The notes under the pieces: model-generated
Seen by the model: only the letters and a program-made list of their open reading frames with translations
Databases searched by the model: none
Told to the model about the DNA's origin: nothing
Shown: positions 14,061-22,944 of the stretch, in pieces
How positions within the stretch are numbered: position 1 is the first letter of the stretch
Layout: the number at the start of each line of letters is the position of its first letter
Assembly (NCBI RefSeq): GCF_017348835.2
Contig: NZ_CP071375.1
DNA from: Escherichia coli
Lineage (GTDB): Bacteria; Pseudomonadota; Gammaproteobacteria; Enterobacterales; Enterobacteriaceae
DNA: 64,000 nt
Direction: 5' to 3' (one strand)
Program-made: the position numbers and the translations under genes

Positions 14061-14423
14061 GGGGCTGATTCTGGATTCGACGGGATTTGCGAAACCCAAG
14101 GTGCATGCCGAGGGGCGGTTGGCCTCGTAAAAAGCCGCAAAAAATAGTCGCAAACGACGAAAACTACGCTTTAGCAGCTTAATAACCTGCTTAGAGCCCT
14201 CTCTCCCTAGCCTCCGCTCTTAGGACGGGGATCAAGAGAGGTCAAACCCAAAAGAGATCGCGTGGAAGCCCTGCCTGGGGTTGAAGCGTTAAAACTTAAT
14301 CAGGCTAGTTTGTTAGTGGCGTGTCCGTCCGCAGCTGGCAAGCGAATGTAAAGACTGACTAAGCATGTAGTACCGAGGACGTAGGAATTTCGGACGCGGG
14401 TTCAACTCCCGCCAGCTCCACCA
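14061..14423 (+). ncRNA. ssrA: tmRNA (SsrA), 363 nt, ending in CCA
   Basis: Starts GGGGCTGATTCTGGATTCGACGGG, contains tag-reading-frame region and tRNA-like 3' end GGTTCAACTCCCGCCAGCTCCACCA. Confidence 0.97.
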
Positions 14424-14550
14424 ATCATGATTGGACGGTGTAAGGACAACACCAACAAAAACAGGAAGTTAGCAGTCTCAGCAGGACACCGACCAGACGG
14501 TGAGGAGACAAAAAAGGATACGCAAAGGAGCCGCGGCTCCTGGCGACATG

Positions 14551-14575
14551 AAAGCCCACAGATGTGGGCTTTTTC
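14551..14575 (+). terminator. Intrinsic terminator downstream of ssrA, just past the ypjA stop
   Basis: GCCCAC-AGAT-GTGGGC hairpin followed by TTTTT. Confidence 0.6.
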
Positions 14576-14583
14576 GTTGATGG

Positions 14584-17500
14584 TCAGAACGACCAGTTCA
14601 CACCAGCCACCGCGTTCCACGGGGATTCCACATCGGCACCGTTGCTATACCCCACCCCGAGATGCCCGCTTAACGTACTGCTGAATGAGGCTTTAATACC
14701 TGCCTGGTATATTCCACGTCTGCCCGACAAATCATTGACGAAATTACCGTCATTATTCACCTTCACCCGGTTATCATCGACAAATTCTTTGCGCACAGCC
14801 GCCTTCAGCCACGGCTCAACTTCCATACCGTTCCCCAGACGCATGTTGTAACTCAGCGTTGCACCCAGTTCACGATATATACTGCGGGTATCGACTGATT
14901 TCGATTCCATGCCATTGGATAAATGATATTCGGGGTTATCAGCGGTGAACCCCGTTAACGATGCATACGGCGTCAGGTTCCAGTTACCATCAGTAAATCG
15001 CATCCCGGTTTCAATGTGACCGCCCAGCCCGTTGCTGTGGTAACTGCCATTGGCGGCTCCACCGCTGCTCATTTTACCGGCTACGTTACTTTCAAAACGG
15101 TTCAGCTTCACGACACCGTCCAGATAGAAACCACTTTCATGTTCCCAACTGGCATAGCCGCCCAGAGAATAACTGCCCACACTGCCATGTCCTCCGCGAT
15201 CAAAACCGATATGTGAATGGGAATAACCCATAAAAGCGCCCAGCGTCGCAATCCCCTCAGGAATATCATTACGGCTGTCGATCCCCACTGTCATTCCGGT
15301 CAGCGTCTGCTCAAACCCGGCCCCCGCATCGGTGGTGACATTATTACGGGTGTTATACGTCGCCCCCCAGACATTATTGTTGTGTGAACTCGCTTTCATT
15401 ATGTTCAACCGCTCGCGAATACTGTTTAGCTCAGCATCAAATACCAACGGTAATGTTGCTGCCATATTGAGTACGGCTGCGGTAGAAGGCGTGATGCGTT
15501 TCTCCGGAACGGGTGTCGGCGTTGGCTCGGGAGTCGGGTCTGGTTTCGGATCCGGTTTTGGGTCTGGTTTTGGATCCGGCTTCGGATTTGGGTTGGGATT
15601 TGGGTTGGGATCCGGGTTGGGTTTGACATCATTGGTCAGGTTCCAGTTGCTGTTGCCATCGCTTTTCAGGACATACTCATAGGTCCCAAGATCAACGAAA
15701 CCGCCAGTATTGCCCAGCGAAAACGAAGCATCCCCTCCCCCTGTTTTCACCAGCGTCATCGCGTCGTCAGACTGAGGACTGACGCCGGTATCCTGAACAA
15801 AGATTTTAAAATTACCAGTGGCGTTGTTGCTGACGACCAGTTGATCACCGCGGGAGCCAGCAACGTTGGTATGCAGGTAGAAATTACCGCTACCGGAAAG
15901 TTCATTGGTTGTCAGCGTATTGTAGATACCGTTAGTTGTGGCAGGCGCTGCTGTTTGTGCTGATAAATAAACATCACCGTCGTTGAGTAGCAAACTGTTT
16001 ACTCTATATTCGCAGTTGCTGGTACCTGCACAGGAATTATTGCTGTTAAGCCAGACACTGCCCCGGCTGGCAGCCATCAGGTCGGCAAGCGTTGTATCGA
16101 CGCCATTTCCCAGAGTTAATGCCGCGCTATCGGTAATCCGGACCGCCCCTACGAGTTTAACTGGCGTAACATTATCCCGTGGCGTCATTAACGACAGGCT
16201 TCCTGTCGCGCCACTGACCGATGCATCCGCCAGCGTACCTGCGTAGACGATTGCCGTACCGCCAGCGACCTGGAGATCTTCTGCCCGGGCCAGAGCCTGA
16301 AACTCATCTTTTGACCGCCCAAGGGTATATTGCCCGCCAGAGTTAACCTTTGTAGCGGAGTCCTGACCCAGGTTTTGCATTGCACCACCCTTGCCAACCG
16401 TGGAGTAGCGAGCTTCGGTACCTGCTAATACCAATAAATTACCACCATTTTCCAGCAACATATTGGTCGCTAAATTTCCGGCAATGGAAAAGGTGCCGTA
16501 CTGGTGAGTACCGCTGATTTCAATACCGTTAGCTGTGCTCGTCTGGAGAGCGGCACCGCTGTTCTGGACGATATCTGTCGCTTTGCCATTATCATTGACT
16601 GTCAGCGTACCGCCTTCATTTATCGTTGTTTTTATTGCCTCACCGTTAGCCGAAACTGTTTGTATTCCGCCGTCGTTAATCGTTGTCTCATTCGCCACAC
16701 CCTCGACGATTTGTTCGCCGCCGGTGAGCGTCGTGCCTGTCGCAGTGGCTTTTATTTTGACGATCTCCCGTCCGCCCGTATTGACCTGTGTTTTGGCGGA
16801 AGTGGTGTCTGACTCCACGGTTAACACGCCGCCATTTGCCAGCAGGATATTGTTCGCCGCATCCTGCTCGATGCTGAACACGACGCCATCTGCGCGTGTC
16901 CCTGTGACACGCGTCGCCTTGGTGGTTGCAACCAACGCGCCCTGGCTACTCTGCTGTATCCCCGTTGCGCTGCCTTTCTCCCGCACATCGAGTGTGCCGC
17001 CGTCATTAAGCACCGAGTTTTCAGCCAGACCGCCCTCATTAACTACCTGTGAACCGCCATTAATAATGGAACCTTCCGCTGTCCCGTTTGCCATAATTTG
17101 TTGTAGGCCAGAGACGATATCGGTGTTGATTGCCTTACCATAACTCTGAACGGTTTGCGTGCCACCATTGATGTGTGTTTTATCTGTTGACCCACCATCA
17201 ACAATTTGTTCACCACTTTCGAAATTTGCCTCAGTGGCTAAACCATATACCGTTTGCTTGCCACCTTTGATATTTGCTTTATCAGAAGTGGCACTGGCAT
17301 ATATTGTTTGGGTGCCCGCACTATTAAGTACAGTGCCAACATCTTTTCCATAAACATCCATTTTGCCGTTGACATTAATAATCGTATCAACTGCCCGGGA
17401 ACCAGTGACGACTGTTAATGAGCCAGCGTTTTCCAGCACTACATTTTTAGCTTCTGAATTCCTGATGTAGAAAGCATCACCATAACTGTTGGTTCCTTCG

Positions 17501-19170
17501 ATAAGTGTTCCGGAAGTCGTGGAAGCAATTAATGCGCCGCCGGATTGTTGCTCAACATGCTTAGCCTCACCACCGTCCTGAACCTCCAGAACGCCGCCAT
17601 GATTAAGTCTGGTGGTATCTGTTTTGGCCTCCTTCTGGACAATCAGCTTACCGCCAGCATCAATGGTAGTATTTTTCGCCGAGGTTTTAGCCACTACCGT
17701 CAATTCGCCGGTATTTTCCAGCACAACATAATTAGCCTCCCCTCCGGTAATAGTGAAGTGAGAGAGCTTGTTGTATCCTTCGATATCAGTCCCTGCGCCC
17801 GTGTTGGCAACTAAAGCACTGCCCGTCTCCTGGTTAACCCCATGTGCAATACCGCCGGTATAGACAATCAGCGAGCCTCCGGCGCTAATATTGCTGCCAG
17901 TTGCCGTACCATCTTTCTCAACAACCTGGCGGCTCCCAGAGGAGATATTCGTCGTGTCAGCTTTCCCGCCGCTCTTGATATTTTGCGTTCCACTGTTGAT
18001 ATTGGTGCCCGTGGCAATACCATGATTATTAATATTCTGTGTGCCACCATTAATTATGGTATTTGTCGCGTTTCCGGCAACATCCATAACCCCGCCATTA
18101 TCTATTCGGGTAGCATCAGCTTTAGCATTCGTTAAAACTGACATTGTTCCTTTATCTTTAATAATCGTCTTGTTTGCCGAACCATATGCGTTTATGTCTA
18201 AATGACCACCGTGTTCCAGCAACACATTGTCTGCAACGTGATTGTGGATGGAGAATGCCCCTTCACTATTCGTACCGCTCACCGTCGTACCGTTAGTGTT
18301 TGTTTTTAAAATTGCACCATCGTGCTGGGTAACATTTGTTGCCGTACCACCACTAACATCAAGCACGCCACCGGAATAAACTTCAATAACATCCGAGGTG
18401 CTGGTGTTATCAACAATTTGCGTGCCACCAGCATAGATCTGCGTATTTTTTGCCGTTGACTTACTATTCAGAGACTGAGTTCCGCCTTCAATCGTGTTGT
18501 TCAGCGCACGGCTCTCATATACTCTTTGCTCACCGCCATTTTTAATGGTGGTTGTTTCTACTGTGCTCTGTTCAACATACTGTCGACCACCATTTATGGT
18601 TGTGTTCGTTGCCAGACTTCCTTGCGTGATGTCCTGAGAGCCAGACTTATTTATCGTTGTACTGTCGACATGCCCCTGAGTTGTTACTCGTTGGCTGCCA
18701 CCATCAATGATTGTTCCATTCGCAGTCCCCCCACTTATGTGTGAATTACCCCCCTTAATTGTCGTTCCATTGCTGATACCACCTGTATAAACGTCCTGAT
18801 TGCCACTCTCGATTATTGTACCTGTGGAAATACCCCCGTCATGAATTGTCTGTCTGCCCCCGTTAATGGTTGTATTATTAGACTGCCCCACATAATTGTT
18901 ATGCCTTGCTACATCTTGATATCCACCAGATTCAATAAGACTTCCATTAGATATCCCACCATAAACATTCTGCTGGCCATGGTTGATAATATGAGTGTTA
19001 TTTGTTGTACCTCGTTCATCTACTCTTTGGGTGCCATCTACAGTCTCATCGTTTACCACACCAATAACATCAGGAGTGAAGGCCGCCATCCCGGGCGGGG
19101 CATATATCAAGGCAGATATCAATAAGGAAAGTACTGAGCGGCGACAATAATGGGGACTGGTCCTGTTCAT
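14584..19170 (-). CDS. ypjA: Large autotransporter adhesin-like protein (YpjA family): signal peptide, long repetitive passenger, Pro-rich linker, C-terminal beta-barrel
   Basis: ORF 14584-19299; start placed at MNRTSPHYCRRSVLSLLISALIYAPPGMAAF (signal peptide) giving about 1528 aa; passenger built of about 19-aa Gly/Thr/Asn-rich repeats; barrel ends ...NWSF. Confidence 0.85.
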   Translation of the reverse strand: MNRTSPHYCRRSVLSLLISALIYAPPGMAAFTPDVIGVVNDETVDGTQRVDERGTTNNTHIINHGQQNVYGGISNGSLIESGGYQDVARHNNYVGQSNNTTINGGRQTIHDGGISTGTIIESGNQDVYTGGISNGTTIKGGNSHISGGTANGTIIDGGSQRVTTQGHVDSTTINKSGSQDITQGSLATNTTINGGRQYVEQSTVETTTIKNGGEQRVYESRALNNTIEGGTQSLNSKSTAKNTQIYAGGTQIVDNTSTSDVIEVYSGGVLDVSGGTATNVTQHDGAILKTNTNGTTVSGTNSEGAFSIHNHVADNVLLEHGGHLDINAYGSANKTIIKDKGTMSVLTNAKADATRIDNGGVMDVAGNATNTIINGGTQNINNHGIATGTNINSGTQNIKSGGKADTTNISSGSRQVVEKDGTATGSNISAGGSLIVYTGGIAHGVNQETGSALVANTGAGTDIEGYNKLSHFTITGGEANYVVLENTGELTVVAKTSAKNTTIDAGGKLIVQKEAKTDTTRLNHGGVLEVQDGGEAKHVEQQSGGALIASTTSGTLIEGTNSYGDAFYIRNSEAKNVVLENAGSLTVVTGSRAVDTIINVNGKMDVYGKDVGTVLNSAGTQTIYASATSDKANIKGGKQTVYGLATEANFESGEQIVDGGSTDKTHINGGTQTVQSYGKAINTDIVSGLQQIMANGTAEGSIINGGSQVVNEGGLAENSVLNDGGTLDVREKGSATGIQQSSQGALVATTKATRVTGTRADGVVFSIEQDAANNILLANGGVLTVESDTTSAKTQVNTGGREIVKIKATATGTTLTGGEQIVEGVANETTINDGGIQTVSANGEAIKTTINEGGTLTVNDNGKATDIVQNSGAALQTSTANGIEISGTHQYGTFSIAGNLATNMLLENGGNLLVLAGTEARYSTVGKGGAMQNLGQDSATKVNSGGQYTLGRSKDEFQALARAEDLQVAGGTAIVYAGTLADASVSGATGSLSLMTPRDNVTPVKLVGAVRITDSAALTLGNGVDTTLADLMAASRGSVWLNSNNSCAGTSNCEYRVNSLLLNDGDVYLSAQTAAPATTNGIYNTLTTNELSGSGNFYLHTNVAGSRGDQLVVSNNATGNFKIFVQDTGVSPQSDDAMTLVKTGGGDASFSLGNTGGFVDLGTYEYVLKSDGNSNWNLTNDVKPNPDPNPNPNPNPKPDPKPDPKPDPKPDPTPEPTPTPVPEKRITPSTAAVLNMAATLPLVFDAELNSIRERLNIMKASSHNNNVWGATYNTRNNVTTDAGAGFEQTLTGMTVGIDSRNDIPEGIATLGAFMGYSHSHIGFDRGGHGSVGSYSLGGYASWEHESGFYLDGVVKLNRFESNVAGKMSSGGAANGSYHSNGLGGHIETGMRFTDGNWNLTPYASLTGFTADNPEYHLSNGMESKSVDTRSIYRELGATLSYNMRLGNGMEVEPWLKAAVRKEFVDDNRVKVNNDGNFVNDLSGRRGIYQAGIKASFSSTLSGHLGVGYSNGADVESPWNAVAGVNWSF
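15527..15631 (-). repeat. In-frame tandem hexanucleotide repeat tract inside ypjA encoding a (Pro-Asn/Asp/Lys)n linker
   Basis: DNA shows repeating ggatccggttttgggtctggtttt... units; translation PNPDPNPNPNPKPDPKPDPKPDPKPDPTPEPTPTP. Confidence 0.75.
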
Positions 19171-19552
19171 AAATTTCATCCTCTGAAAAGTGAATACTGA
19201 GTAGCGTTTAAGCAACCTTAGCTCTGCTGCAACATCAGCCCACAGGCACCAGACCAGGGGATTCATCCTGAAGAGACAGCGCAAGTGTATTGTGTTCACC
19301 GCTCATCAAAGACATCATGATGAAATGATGATATTCCGCATAAGAATGAGTCATTTTTTAAACGCAGTGCGCTGAAGTGTGGTTGGATAAAAAAGTCAAT
19401 CTATTCAGGAAACACGGGCGTATTCTTTTCTTTCGACATTCAGGCAGTCGGCAAAATAAAATGATTTACATAATCGTTTCTGATGAATATCTTCTGCTCA
19501 CATAAAAATCACACAATAACTTTGATATCGCAGATTGTTTTACTTCTACAGC

Positions 19553-19745
19553 ATTCGTCCCCCCATTGTTGGGGAAATATAGATTGGGCCAGAGCTCGAA
19601 AGTTAATACCACGTTTGCACAACTCCTCCAACAGCACGACAAGATGCCACATACTGCGCACCAGTCGGTTCAGTTTACAGACTAGCAGTGCGTACCCTGC
19701 CGATAATGTCCTGAGCAGTTTTTTCAGTCCGGACCTCCTGCCACG
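19553..19745 (-). pseudogene. pinH: Internal fragment of a Pin/Hin/Gin-family serine DNA invertase (remnant, no start, no catalytic N-terminus, no HTH)
   Basis: Minus-strand translation RRSGLKKLLRTLSAGYALLVCKLNRLVRSMWHLVVLLEELCKRGINFRALAQSI aligns with the invertase core ...[45 protein letters not shown]; flanked by stop codons. Confidence 0.6.
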
Positions 19746-20104
19746 GTTTTACGTTGAAGAGGTAACCCTGAGCACGCAGTTCTTCAGTCAGGCGTGGTGC
19801 ACCGTAACGCTGTTATTGCTGGGTAAGATCAAAAAACTTTCAGGCAGCTAAGGAAAGTTGAACCAGACATTAGATGAAATATTTCAACCAATTACAGCAC
19901 TAATTCAACACCGCCAGATCGCCAAATAAATCAAGGGGTTACGTGAAAGTGCAGCCCCTTTTTCTTTGGTAGTGACAGCAAAATGGATGTAGTGTGAAGA
20001 ATAATCCCGTTTAATCAATCAATAATACATATTGTTTCAATCTACGTTATTATCTCTTTGTAAAAATTGCCATTTATTCATCATTGAAAACTGCTTTTAG
20101 AACT

Positions 20105-21559
20105 TTATACAATAGAACTATTCACAACAGGACTATTCTCAACAGGATCATCCTCAGAGGAACTATCATCAAAGTCATCATCCATAAATAAAATATCATC
20201 GAATGGTGCCACGCCCGTGATTAGTTTTATTTTATTATTACGATCAGACAAGACTCCATTTAAACCGTTTTCGCTGACGGATTTTAATAATTTCTCATAA
20301 CTCTTATTGTCATCAGGCACATTAAAAATACACGGTGCATCAACATCAAACAATGAAGTTCTCCAATTCACATTTTTAATATCATAGTTACGGAAGTTCT
20401 GTCCAGAAAAGAAGCATCCCTTAAAATCCAACCCACCTAAATTATATAAACCACCCTCTCCTTTTTGTAGAGTAATATTAATTCTGGCTATCTCCCGGAC
20501 AAAACTTCCTTTTTTATATTTGAATACCGTTTCAAGATTTTCCCCAGACAGCTTGACTTCTGGGAATAATTTGAAATTAAACCCTACATCATTATTATTC
20601 AAAGTAGATGAACGGAAGATGGAAAAAGCTTGCAGCGCTGAATTATAGCTTTCGATTTTATCTTGAGGCTGCGCTCTTGGTAAAAATATATAGCAGCACT
20701 CATAAAAATTGAATAAACGTTCTGATGAATTTCCATTTTTATCAAATAATATCCCCCGGAACTCCTTCACAAAGGCATCCGTTATTTTTTGAATATCTAT
20801 GGTGTGTTCCTTTGACTCTGACAAAGATGGAGCCTGTTGAAGTGCATTGCTCATCTGGTTAAGGAACATCTGCATTTCTTTCAATTTATCTCCATAGTGG
20901 CCTTTAACTTGCTGAGAGTTTTTAGTTACAGGTGAAACCTTATCTATTTGGTTGTCATATAAATTACGTGGTTCCATAGAGACATTTGGTTGCGTTTCTA
21001 AAATAACACTACGCGTACTACCTGGCTTTAATGAATCAACATGAAACTCACTTTTTCTTATATTGCCGAATAGGGTCTGTTCATCTCTCTTAGCGGATTG
21101 AAAAAAATGATCAACATTATTTTTATTCGATGACAGGTCAGTTTCAGAAACCGCATTTTCTTTGTTCTCCAGCTTTAGTTTAATGAGAAGATCTTCCCAG
21201 ACCTGCTTGCTTAAACATACTACGTCAGGCTCACCATCAGTAACTAACTCTTCATTATTATCAAAGTATACGTTGAATACTTTTAAGTTATTTTCATCAA
21301 CATCATATTTAATACGTTTTAATTGCTCTCCAGATCCCATAATGACAAAGGCGTTGCCTTCATGATATATACATTCAGACATCATTTTTTGTAAAGTTTC
21401 AAGAGCACCGCGATACGTCGCTGAGGCAGCTTCCTTACAAATTAATTTTATAATACTATGAGCTAGTAGCTCCATGGGGTTGGAAGAATTGTTTCCATTA
21501 CAATTCCTGCTAGCAAAAAATGCGCTAGTGTTAAGTTCGTTGCTTTTACTAACTAACAT
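20105..21559 (-). CDS. Hypothetical 484-aa protein of unknown function (probably the YpjC family), low-GC gene with C-terminal pentapeptide-like repeats and acidic tail
   Basis: Long ORF in very AT-rich DNA; residues about 395-430 read LDFKG-CFFSG-QNFRN-YDIKN-VNWRT-SLFDV (x-D/N-hydrophobic-x-x periodicity); C-terminus DDDFDDSSSEDDPVENS; no signal peptide or TM evident. Confidence 0.6.
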   Translation of the reverse strand: MLVSKSNELNTSAFFASRNCNGNNSSNPMELLAHSIIKLICKEAASATYRGALETLQKMMSECIYHEGNAFVIMGSGEQLKRIKYDVDENNLKVFNVYFDNNEELVTDGEPDVVCLSKQVWEDLLIKLKLENKENAVSETDLSSNKNNVDHFFQSAKRDEQTLFGNIRKSEFHVDSLKPGSTRSVILETQPNVSMEPRNLYDNQIDKVSPVTKNSQQVKGHYGDKLKEMQMFLNQMSNALQQAPSLSESKEHTIDIQKITDAFVKEFRGILFDKNGNSSERLFNFYECCYIFLPRAQPQDKIESYNSALQAFSIFRSSTLNNNDVGFNFKLFPEVKLSGENLETVFKYKKGSFVREIARINITLQKGEGGLYNLGGLDFKGCFFSGQNFRNYDIKNVNWRTSLFDVDAPCIFNVPDDNKSYEKLLKSVSENGLNGVLSDRNNKIKLITGVAPFDDILFMDDDFDDSSSEDDPVENSPVVNSSIV

Positions 21560-22073
21560 TGTCTATTCCTCAATTAATGTCTACATGGCTATTTTTAATG
21601 TTATTACTGTTTGTCACTATAAAAATCGCTCATTTGAGACAATTGCTGACATTAACTGTTTCACATGCTACGCATGGAACTTTTAATTAAATTAGCACAG
21701 GAATGTTAAATTTAATAAACAAAAGGTTATTTCGCTGTATGATAAAAACCACCCGTTATAATTTATTAGTGAAATTCGTTTTTCGAGTGTTAGAAATTTA
21801 TATCTAAATAGCGTTGATTAATGAGAAATGCCAGACTCCTGTAACGCTCATAAGACTCATCTGCCTGCGACGGGTGTTCTGGTCAGTAGTAGATGTTTAA
21901 GGCGTGCCAGAGACATTTCATACTTACTCTACGGCATTGTTCTACATACATTGGTTGTGGTACTCACTCATCATCAGTGAGCGAACAGAGAATAGTTCAG
22001 TGATTTGAGTAATTAACCTGATTAAATGAAGGGGTATAATAAATGATAATACTCTGGCTTTATCGTTAATTAC

Positions 22074-22300
22074 TTAATTCCACATGTAAGCAATTTGCCC
22101 GCTTGGCATAGCGAGCATTTTTTCCAGGTACTTTTGAATGAGTACTGATGGATAAATACATTGCAGTGGCGTGCCACGTACCAAAACACCAGCCCTCATT
22201 CGAAACCACCCACCGCACTTCTTCCTTGAAATGGCGTTAGTCATGAAATATAGACCGCCATCGAGTACCCCTTGTACCCTTAACTCTTCCTGATACATGA
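22074..22300 (-). pseudogene. Possible degraded N-terminal stub of a P4-family tyrosine integrase immediately 3' of ileY
   Basis: Minus-strand translation ...VLDGGLYFMTNAISRKKCGGWFRMRAG... resembles the integrase N-terminal motif ...LADGGGLYL...GSKYWRMKYR...; short, stops at 22074; weak similarity. Confidence 0.35.
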
Positions 22301-22308
22301 ATGATGAT

Positions 22309-22384
22309 TTGGTGGCCCTTGCTGGACTTGAACCAGCGACCAGGCGATTATGAGTCGCCTGCTCTAACCACTGAGCTAAAGGGC
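22309..22384 (-). tRNA. ileY: tRNA-Ile (anticodon CAU, lysidine-modified, AUA-reading)
   Basis: Minus strand reads GGCCCTTTAGCTCAGTGG...CGACTCATAATCG...GGTTCAAGTCCAGCAAGGGCCACCA; cloverleaf with CAT anticodon. Confidence 0.92.
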
Positions 22385-22944
22385 CTTGAGTGTGCAATAA
22401 CAATACTTATAAACCACGCAATAAACATGATGATCATATGATGTAAATAACAGATTTTTATGCGTTCTCATTCATCCTTGCTCGTCATTACACGCGACAT
22501 AAAACCCGACACCGCCTCTATTCGCAAAGTCGATACTCGCAGTCAACAAGCAAATGTTAATAATTAACACTATCTATAGTTATCATCGATTCAATGATAC
22601 TTTGTAATGATTTTGTATCTAATAATATAACTTTATTACATTAGCTGAAGAGTTTTCGCATCATTATGATATCTGTTACTTTTCACGCCATAAAAATAAA
22701 CTTCATATAGCAATATATTCTTTCATAGATCTTATTCTGCTAATCATTAGTTTCGTATGAGCGATTTTTGACAGTTGCCTCTCCAGACCACATCGATAAT
22801 TAAAAAAACAGATTTAAGCATTATCCTTTTCCATATAAATATTGGATAAAAGTAGGACATCTGTTTGCAATTACTTTCACAACAATTAAACATTTTTATG
22901 TTTCCATATACACCATATTACTCTACCATTAGAGGAACTTTATT

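Follow-up and report, generated by a model that had tools for sequence, protein, structure and literature searches.

The window analysed here, a 64,000-nt stretch of Escherichia coli contig NZ_CP071375.1 (assembly GCF_017348835.2), carries on its minus strand, at positions 20105-21559, an intact allele of ypjCB, which forms a single gene. The open reading frame (ORF) begins with ATG, spans 1455 nt with its stop codon, encodes 484 amino acids and is open throughout. Allele comparisons identify ypjCB as a real protein-coding gene under weak constraint and not neutral DNA, and they support the presence in its product of a short pentapeptide-repeat module that domain databases do not flag. Overall, we regard it as probable that ypjCB is a fast-evolving accessory gene, gained by horizontal transfer and associated with H-NS/Hha, and that its product is a conditionally useful partner binder.

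An initial annotation, made from the sequence alone, had described an intact low-GC frame of 1455 bp and 484 codons, and its coordinates proved exact. The G+C (GC) content of ypjCB is 35.1%, with 31% at third codon positions (GC3), against 49.8% for the window, and the low-GC islet to which the gene belongs takes in the whole stretch from ~20000 to 25500. Isoleucine is encoded by ATA at 10 of 26 positions in ypjCB and at 21 of 66 in the nearby ygaQ, as compared with 0 of 32 in gabD. The hydropathy profile of YpjCB (peak 19-residue Kyte-Doolittle mean, 0.89) bears out the earlier statement that no transmembrane-like segment is present, and the N-terminus lacks a hydrophobic core. The protein has a net charge of -15, of which -11 falls in residues 451-484, the acidic tail that the initial annotation had pointed out, and about -4 in the remainder. 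Promoter and terminator scans returned nothing above shuffled expectation.

The identity of the gene is well established. YpjCB matches the NCBIfam model NF050179, "YpjCB family protein", with 937.7 bits (cut-off 650), residues 1-484 aligning with profile positions 1-465 of 465, and the Pfam halves DUF5507 and DUF5508 follow each other in the expected order (Table 1). A 100% identical gene is found in the pig isolate E. coli PE164 (protein WP_053884137.1), with matching neighbours in the order gabT-gabD-lhgO-glaH, amylase-like ygaQ, tRNA gene ileY, ypjCB, Pin recombinase remnant, ypjA and ssrA. The position between ileY and the pin remnant/ypjA is kept in PE164, K-12, CS5L, Q65, O104:H4, NZRM3614 and 1604D011. 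In K-12, an internal stop codon has led annotation to split the gene into ypjC, a pseudogene, and ypjB; the earlier description of ypjC as a K-12 pseudogene was correct, the internal TAG being confirmed. The gene, the family and the K-12 pseudogene status had all been catalogued, and on present evidence ypjCB represents a known family and a refinement of a catalogued gene, not a new system.

In the literature, no functional study came up under DUF5507, DUF5508, YpjCB or the b-numbers. YpjCB matched no enzymatic, defence or effector family in Pfam, NCBIfam, PADLOC or the PDB sequences, so that the claimed lack of a recognisable catalytic motif holds for these searches. In PHROGs the protein belongs over its full length to phrog_30093, a family of unknown function made of YpjCB itself. 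A weak likeness of residues 97-167 (21059-21271, minus strand) to the NAD-binding region of Gfo/Idh/MocA oxidoreductases was considered and set aside: the match to PDB entry 3ezy has E=1, that to a 1316-aa tandem protein, P0162, reaches E=1.3e-4 only when summed over 4 repeats, and both probably reflect chance or composition.

The family appears to be restricted to one species. The best 120 of 426 relatives were all at least 89% identical to the window protein, and each named one came from E. coli or Shigella. A hidden Markov model (HMM) search of 1.84 billion cluster representatives (50% identity) recovered a single full-length cluster, along with short fragments belonging to the family and a weak match to an unrelated protein (P0162), and no relative from outside E. 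coli/Shigella was found among them. When one genome per prokaryotic species was scanned, the lone match was a ypjCB pseudogene on a 2.8-kb contig (DEQI01000374.1) of the metagenome-assembled genome (MAG) "Planococcaceae bacterium UBA3370". Nonsynonymous (dN) and synonymous (dS) divergence between this allele and that of K-12 are both 0, and the contig is therefore almost certainly E. coli contamination. No record in the phage collection encodes YpjCB. In the plasmid collection, the matches were three mislabelled chromosomes and a 354-nt fragment on an IncHI2 plasmid. From the database, species-genome, phage and plasmid results, and within the reach of these collections, we therefore take the family to occur only in E. 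coli. The designation "orphan" given by the initial annotation is accordingly apt in the taxonomic sense, no relative having been found outside E. coli/Shigella, and misleading in another, as YpjCB has a named, curated family and is carried by 3075 of 5426 complete E. coli genomes. ypjCB is one of the "y-genes" of the best-studied bacterium, and no homologue was found outside its species.

The plasmid-borne fragment lies on the conjugative plasmid NZ_MN732922.1 (L004:6001-6354), where it corresponds to residues 168-320 of a K-12-type allele within an unannotated stretch; presumably it arrived with chromosomal DNA.

Within the species, the gene is absent from 2351 of the 5426 complete genomes (43%), and its carriers are strongly diverged. 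Identity to the window allele reaches at least 99% in just 16 of them and is only 80-90% in 2919. The O157:H7 clone possesses an intact 449-aa allele, represented by 310 genomes at 99% identity or more. To survey disruption, we inspected 19 of 30 evenly spaced carriers: 8 had an annotated intact gene, 10 a pseudogene and 1 a fragment flanked by IS5 (~58% disrupted). Extrapolation from this small sample suggests that roughly a quarter of complete genomes hold an open ypjCB.

Loss or inactivation of the gene is repeated and independent. At least three types of lesion occur: the K-12 type of stop, at codon 161; another stop position, codon 119, in CS5L and E20; and frameshifts in strain 673 and O104:H4. 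The exact 61-mer with the K-12 TAG is found in at least 1232 complete genomes and its counterpart with CAG in 340. Apart from the TAG at codon 161, the K-12 copy has 35 linker residues fewer; the length of the linker is also polymorphic, in frame, in strain 1604D011, through a separate 24-codon deletion. The C-terminal end of the protein exists in two forms, ...NSSIV or ...TSPVVSSSKSSFQ.

The persistence of the reading frame shows that ypjCB is a real coding sequence. When the 152-222 differences observed between two intact alleles were placed at random, with the base-change spectrum kept, the frame stayed open in 0.03-0.13% of trials (P=0.0003-0.0013 in each of the seven intact pairs compared). 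Along the protein, variation is concentrated in residues 1-20, 141-260 and 461-484 and is lowest in residues 281-320 and the repeat. Constraint is nevertheless weak. Pairwise Nei-Gojobori estimates among nine ypjCB alleles gave dN of 0.06-0.16, dS of 0.09-0.30 and a dN/dS ratio (omega) of 0.47-0.95. In matched strains the adjacent and equally AT-rich ygaQ has dN of 0.009-0.017, dS of 0.05-0.18 and omega of 0.06-0.21; it is low in GC yet under clear purifying selection, and YpjCB changes 7-10 times faster than its product at the protein level.

The initial annotation had noted about six pentapeptide-type units in the C-terminal part of the protein. They are present, and there are in fact seven in succession, each with a hydrophobic centre: YNLGG, LDFKG, CFFSG, QNFRN, YDIKN, VNWRT and SLFDV (residues 372-406). 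They fit the unit pattern of pentapeptide-repeat proteins, in which position i is hydrophobic, i-2 is small or hydrophobic and i-1 is D/N. The composite pentad score of this run was matched or beaten in only 12 of 2000 shuffles of YpjCB. A phmmer search of all PDB sequences with the 46-residue core returned 15 matches, all with weak E-values, 12 of which were pentapeptide-repeat proteins or designs derived from them; they included MfpA (E=0.0074), QnrB1, AhQnr, TL15 and NleL (E=1.2). Two shuffled versions of the core segment retrieved no pentapeptide-repeat protein from the PDB.

The pattern of natural variation agrees with this assignment. The 35-residue run has 7 variable columns in a comparison of 17 alleles. 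All of them fall at positions i+1 or i+2 (7 of 14 such positions), and none of the 21 positions i-2, i-1 and i varies (hypergeometric P=5e-4). In the repeated five-residue (Rfr) fold, the side chains at i and i-2 pack inside a beta-solenoid. Confinement of variation to i+1 and i+2 is the pattern expected if these side chains are buried. AlphaFold2 likewise placed strands with a five-residue period in the repeat, with a predicted local distance difference test (pLDDT) score of 64-73. The NCBIfam library is able to detect such repeats, since it finds those of K-12 YjbI through 13 models. Sequence comparison with shuffled controls and the i+1/i+2 variation thus back the earlier reading of a pentapeptide-type repeat and support a short module of this kind in YpjCB.

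Outside the repeat, the acidic tail has a core, PFDDILFMDDDFDD, that is conserved in most alleles. This core (PFDDILF-MDDDFDD) resembles the C-terminal tip of the E. coli single-stranded DNA-binding protein (SSB), PPMDFDDDIPF as read from K-12 ssb. Because the motif is internal in YpjCB, ~20 residues from the end, mimicry of SSB is doubtful.

How such a gene came to be in E. coli, and what it might do, can be outlined from these observations. The gene lies in a low-GC islet, with ssrA/ypjA on one side and the gab operon on the other, next to ileY and a dead Pin gene, and no relative was found outside the species. Together these points make acquisition on a mobile element likely; most likely, ypjCB was brought in by a phage-like or integrative element that has since degraded. 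Its product would be a soluble, non-enzymatic, multi-domain protein. From the N-terminus, a disordered Ser/Asn-rich segment may lead into an alpha/beta DUF5507 domain and a variable linker; a helical block would follow, then a beta region whose end forms a short repeat coil, and finally a disordered tail rich in acidic and aromatic residues. In the coil the buried positions would be the invariant ones and the exposed positions those that vary. This anatomy suggests a binding protein in preference to an enzyme, and we infer that the repeat surface and the acidic tail may bind a partner protein, with YpjCB serving as an adaptor or a decoy. The benefit is likely to be conditional, which would explain why many lineages have dispensed with the gene.

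Published data on K-12 bear on its regulation and use. Upstream of ypjC there is a sigma-70 promoter that is constitutive and bears an H-NS mark (PMC3946193). The ypjC region is bound by Hha, and a 9-fold induction of ypjC was taken by the authors to mean that Hha induces its transcription (PMC2408971). These promoter data point to regulation by H-NS/Hha. In a biofilm assay, deletion of K-12 ypjC led to more colonisation of the commensal biofilm by the enteroaggregative E. coli (EAEC) strain 55989 (PMC3646849).

Several observations weigh against the account of a conditionally useful partner binder. The Hha study reports induction, not silencing, and both the H-NS and the Hha data come from K-12, not from the allele in the window (PMC2408971, PMC3946193). 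The biofilm phenotype was obtained with the already truncated K-12 gene, and constitutive expression did not reverse it (PMC3646849). The adaptor or binding mechanism is an inference only. No pentapeptide family was reported for YpjCB by Pfam (E<=10) or NCBIfam (E<=1). AlphaFold2 models had low confidence, with a mean pLDDT of 39 for the full length (10-sequence alignment) and of 38 for residues 245-458 alone; the family lacks the depth needed for a useful alignment, and fold searches gave noise. The initial annotation had named two outcomes that would tell against its proposal, a prediction without beta-helix or ordered fold and consistent disruption of the orthologues; what we found is mixed, with no confident fold on the one hand and orthologues that are often, not consistently, disrupted on the other. 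Finally, omega near 0.5-0.9 and frequent pseudogenes also fit a gene on its way out.

This last point leads to the alternative that fares best, although we consider it unlikely: that ypjCB in the window is an open but functionless remnant, decaying cargo left by a dead mobile element and so far merely spared a stop codon. The disruption of ~58% of sampled carriers, the absence of the gene from 43% of genomes, omega of 0.5-0.95 and the frequent pseudogene status of the neighbours ygaQ, pin and ypjA are all what decay would produce. It does not readily account for intact alleles that differ at 150-220 sites without a stop or frameshift (P ~0.001 or less per pair), nor for retention of the intact allele throughout the O157:H7 clone (310 genomes at 99% or more), and the conservation of the pentads (0 of 21 versus 7 of 14 positions variable) indicates selection on the fold.

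Less probable again is that YpjCB is an unrecognised conflict protein, either an effector secreted by a type III system or an anti-phage or decoy factor working alone, whose repeat surface and SSB-tip-like tail (PFDDILFMDDDFDD, compared with MDFDDDIPF in SSB) would have their binding target in the host, in a phage or in DNA metabolism. If so, the deep allele classes and repeated loss would reflect diversifying or balancing selection and not plain decay.

Taken separately, the effector form of this idea seems doubtful. YpjCB would then be a substrate of a type III secretion system (T3SS), that of the locus of enterocyte effacement (LEE) or E. coli T3SS 2 (ETT2), comparable to PipB2, SopA/NleL or EspX, with the N-terminus as the signal and the repeat and tail engaging a host target. 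The gene is low in GC, linked to a tRNA gene and fast-evolving; its product lacks a Sec signal and has 47% S+N+T+Q in residues 1-30, and the K-12 SopA-family protein YjbI has a similar Asn-rich start. The repeat core weakly matches NleL in the PDB (E=1.2), and the allele is intact throughout LEE-positive O157:H7. Such support, drawn from composition, O157:H7 intactness and the weak NleL match, is circumstantial, and it is countered by the lack of a match to any effector family model in NCBIfam, a non-significant BLASTP comparison with YjbI (E=0.77) and the absence of an adjacent chaperone or secretion gene. Most ypjCB carriers, moreover, are not known to have a functional T3SS.

That YpjCB belongs to a conflict or anti-phage system, acting by itself in defence or as a decoy and with a surface that diversifies under phage pressure, we regard as improbable. 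Hyper-diverged allele classes, presence/absence polymorphism, a location beside the ssrA integration hot spot and full-length membership of phrog_30093 would be in keeping with it, as would a weak match to Pfam CTD4 (PF20280, ABC-3C/Lamassu-type) over residues 79-221 (20897-21325, minus strand; E=0.0015). At 18.5 bits, however, this match is marginal, PADLOC is empty, no ATP-binding cassette (ABC) ATPase or nuclease partner lies nearby and no phage record carries ypjCB. Membership of an ABC-3C/Lamassu-type system in particular was rejected, given the marginal CTD4 score, the empty PADLOC result and the lack of a neighbouring ABC/SMC-like ATPase, the neighbours being a tRNA gene, the pin remnant, ypjA and the amylase-like gene.

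Qnr and MfpA proteins (183-221 aa) have the pentapeptide repeat over nearly their full length. A DNA mimic of this type, protecting or inhibiting a DNA-binding enzyme, is the least tenable of the alternatives and highly improbable. In its favour are the acidic tail and the best core matches in the PDB, MfpA (E=0.0074) and Qnr proteins. Against it, the repeat falls well short of the length that such a role would require (~7 pentads, ~35 of 484 residues, under two coils) and no Qnr/MfpA model is matched by a library that does find the YjbI repeats; the net charge outside the tail is, besides, only about -4. The step taken in the initial annotation from repeat and tail to secreted effector-like and DNA-mimic proteins is not supported: the repeat covers ~35 residues, no Pfam or NCBIfam model for pentapeptide, Qnr, MfpA, PipB/PipB2 or SopA proteins is matched, and the comparison with YjbI is the non-significant one given above.

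Table 1. Features of ypjCB and of its surroundings, in window coordinates
Feature	Position	Strand	Basis
ypjCB coding sequence (484 codons + stop; intact fusion of K-12 "ypjC" and "ypjB")	20105..21559	-	ORF list; NF050179; PE164 identity
Shine-Dalgarno-like GAGGA, 7 nt upstream of ATG	21567..21571	-	Read from sequence
Pfam DUF5507 (PF17612), residues 1-160, K-12 YpjC part	21080..21559	-	E=1.2e-80, model 1-160 of 160
Pfam DUF5508 (PF17621), residues 234-484, K-12 YpjB part	20108..20860	-	E=2.3e-137
Residues 1-30, Ser/Asn-rich, highly variable, predicted unstructured	21470..21559	-	47% S+N+T+Q; 70% of columns vary in first 20-residue block; pLDDT 22-28
Codon 161, Gln in window allele, TAG in K-12	21077..21079	-	K-12 translation, exact 61-mer counts, sampled-allele stops
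35-codon linker stretch (~residues 209-243), in 484-aa alleles, absent from K-12 and O157 type alleles	20832..20936	-	Protein and nucleotide alignments
Residues 281-320 (NFYECCY...ALQAFSIF), most conserved block, predicted helical	20600..20719	-	10-15% of columns vary; helices 280-295 and 298-319 at low confidence
Residues 372-406, seven pentapeptide-repeat-like units	20342..20446	-	Shuffle test, PDB matches, variation pattern, AlphaFold2 periodicity
Residues 451-484, acidic tail APFDDILFMDDDFDDSSSEDDP..., predicted disordered	20108..20209	-	Net charge -11; pLDDT 25-31
tRNA ileY (CAT anticodon), upstream neighbour, islet landmark	22310..22385	-	ARAGORN; RefSeq tRNA-Ile at equivalent place
Pin-type recombinase gene remnant (internal fragment), just downstream of ypjCB	19578..19745	-	RefSeq annotation of identical PE164 stretch, mapped to window
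39-codon ORF labelled "ATPase" or "hypothetical", between ypjCB and ypjA	19235-19354	-	Annotation
ypjA (EhaD autotransporter)	14584-19299	-	PE164 annotation
ygaQ-like amylase-family gene, 750 aa, intact in window	22945-25197	+	ORF, Pfam
glaH (csiD), intact in window	25533-26510	+	tblastn, residues 1-325 in single frame

The CAT-anticodon tRNA gene upstream of ypjCB is called tRNA-Met by ARAGORN and tRNA-Ile (ileY, the AUA decoder) by RefSeq, and ATA-rich, low-GC genes flank it on both sides. Downstream, the Pin fragment and the 39-codon ORF are both kept in all genomes inspected, and they suggest a long-dead mobile element. In the near-identical PE164 genome, ypjA directly abuts ssrA, with no CP4-57 prophage between them (window 14061-19299); in K-12 the CP4-57 gene ypjF comes after ypjA, and in strain CH4804 an integrase adjoins ssrA. 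The ygaQ-like protein has only weak Pfam alpha-amylase matches (residues 264-519 and 649-738), its first ~260 residues being without a family match. Its gene is present in 4102 of the 5426 complete E. coli genomes, with 95-99% identity across 4078, and annotation marks it as a pseudogene in K-12, O104:H4 and O157 NZRM3614. glaH is annotated as frameshifted in the otherwise near-identical PE164, so that the window must come from a close relative of PE164 and not from the PE164 assembly itself.

What is new in this analysis is descriptive: the unflagged repeat module, the contrast in rate with ygaQ, the selection to stay open and the estimate that most carriers are null. Functional work would be better done on an intact allele, from the window or from O157:H7, than on K-12, whose reported phenotypes come from a truncated gene.

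Compared with its closest counterpart, K-12 ypjC (b2650, pseudogene) and ypjB (b2649), the window gene shares the locus between ileY and the pin remnant/ypjA and the full-length family match. It differs in being intact at 484 aa, with 88% DNA identity, an additional 35 linker residues and Gln in place of TAG at codon 161.

With the pentapeptide-repeat proteins MfpA, QnrB1, AhQnr and thylakoid TL15, YpjCB has in common A(D/N)LXX-like pentads with Phe, Ile, Trp or Leu at the centre. In contrast to these proteins, it contains only 7 pentads, set within a 484-aa multi-domain protein, and its beta-helix is putative. Salmonella PipB/PipB2 and SopA, NleL/EspX of enterohaemorrhagic E. coli and K-12 YjbI resemble YpjCB as products of low-GC enterobacterial accessory genes with a repeat module and no Sec signal; unlike them, YpjCB shows no detectable homology to this group, and where YjbI matches 13 NCBIfam repeat/effector models, YpjCB matches none.

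The broadest parallel is with the AT-rich, fast-evolving ORFans of E. coli, which Daubin and Ochman reportedly thought, in 2004, to be phage-derived. Restriction to E. coli, AT-richness, high dN/dS and adjoining mobile-element remnants are features that ypjCB shares with them. At 484 aa, YpjCB is much longer than typical ORFans, and its structure is clearly constrained over part of its length.

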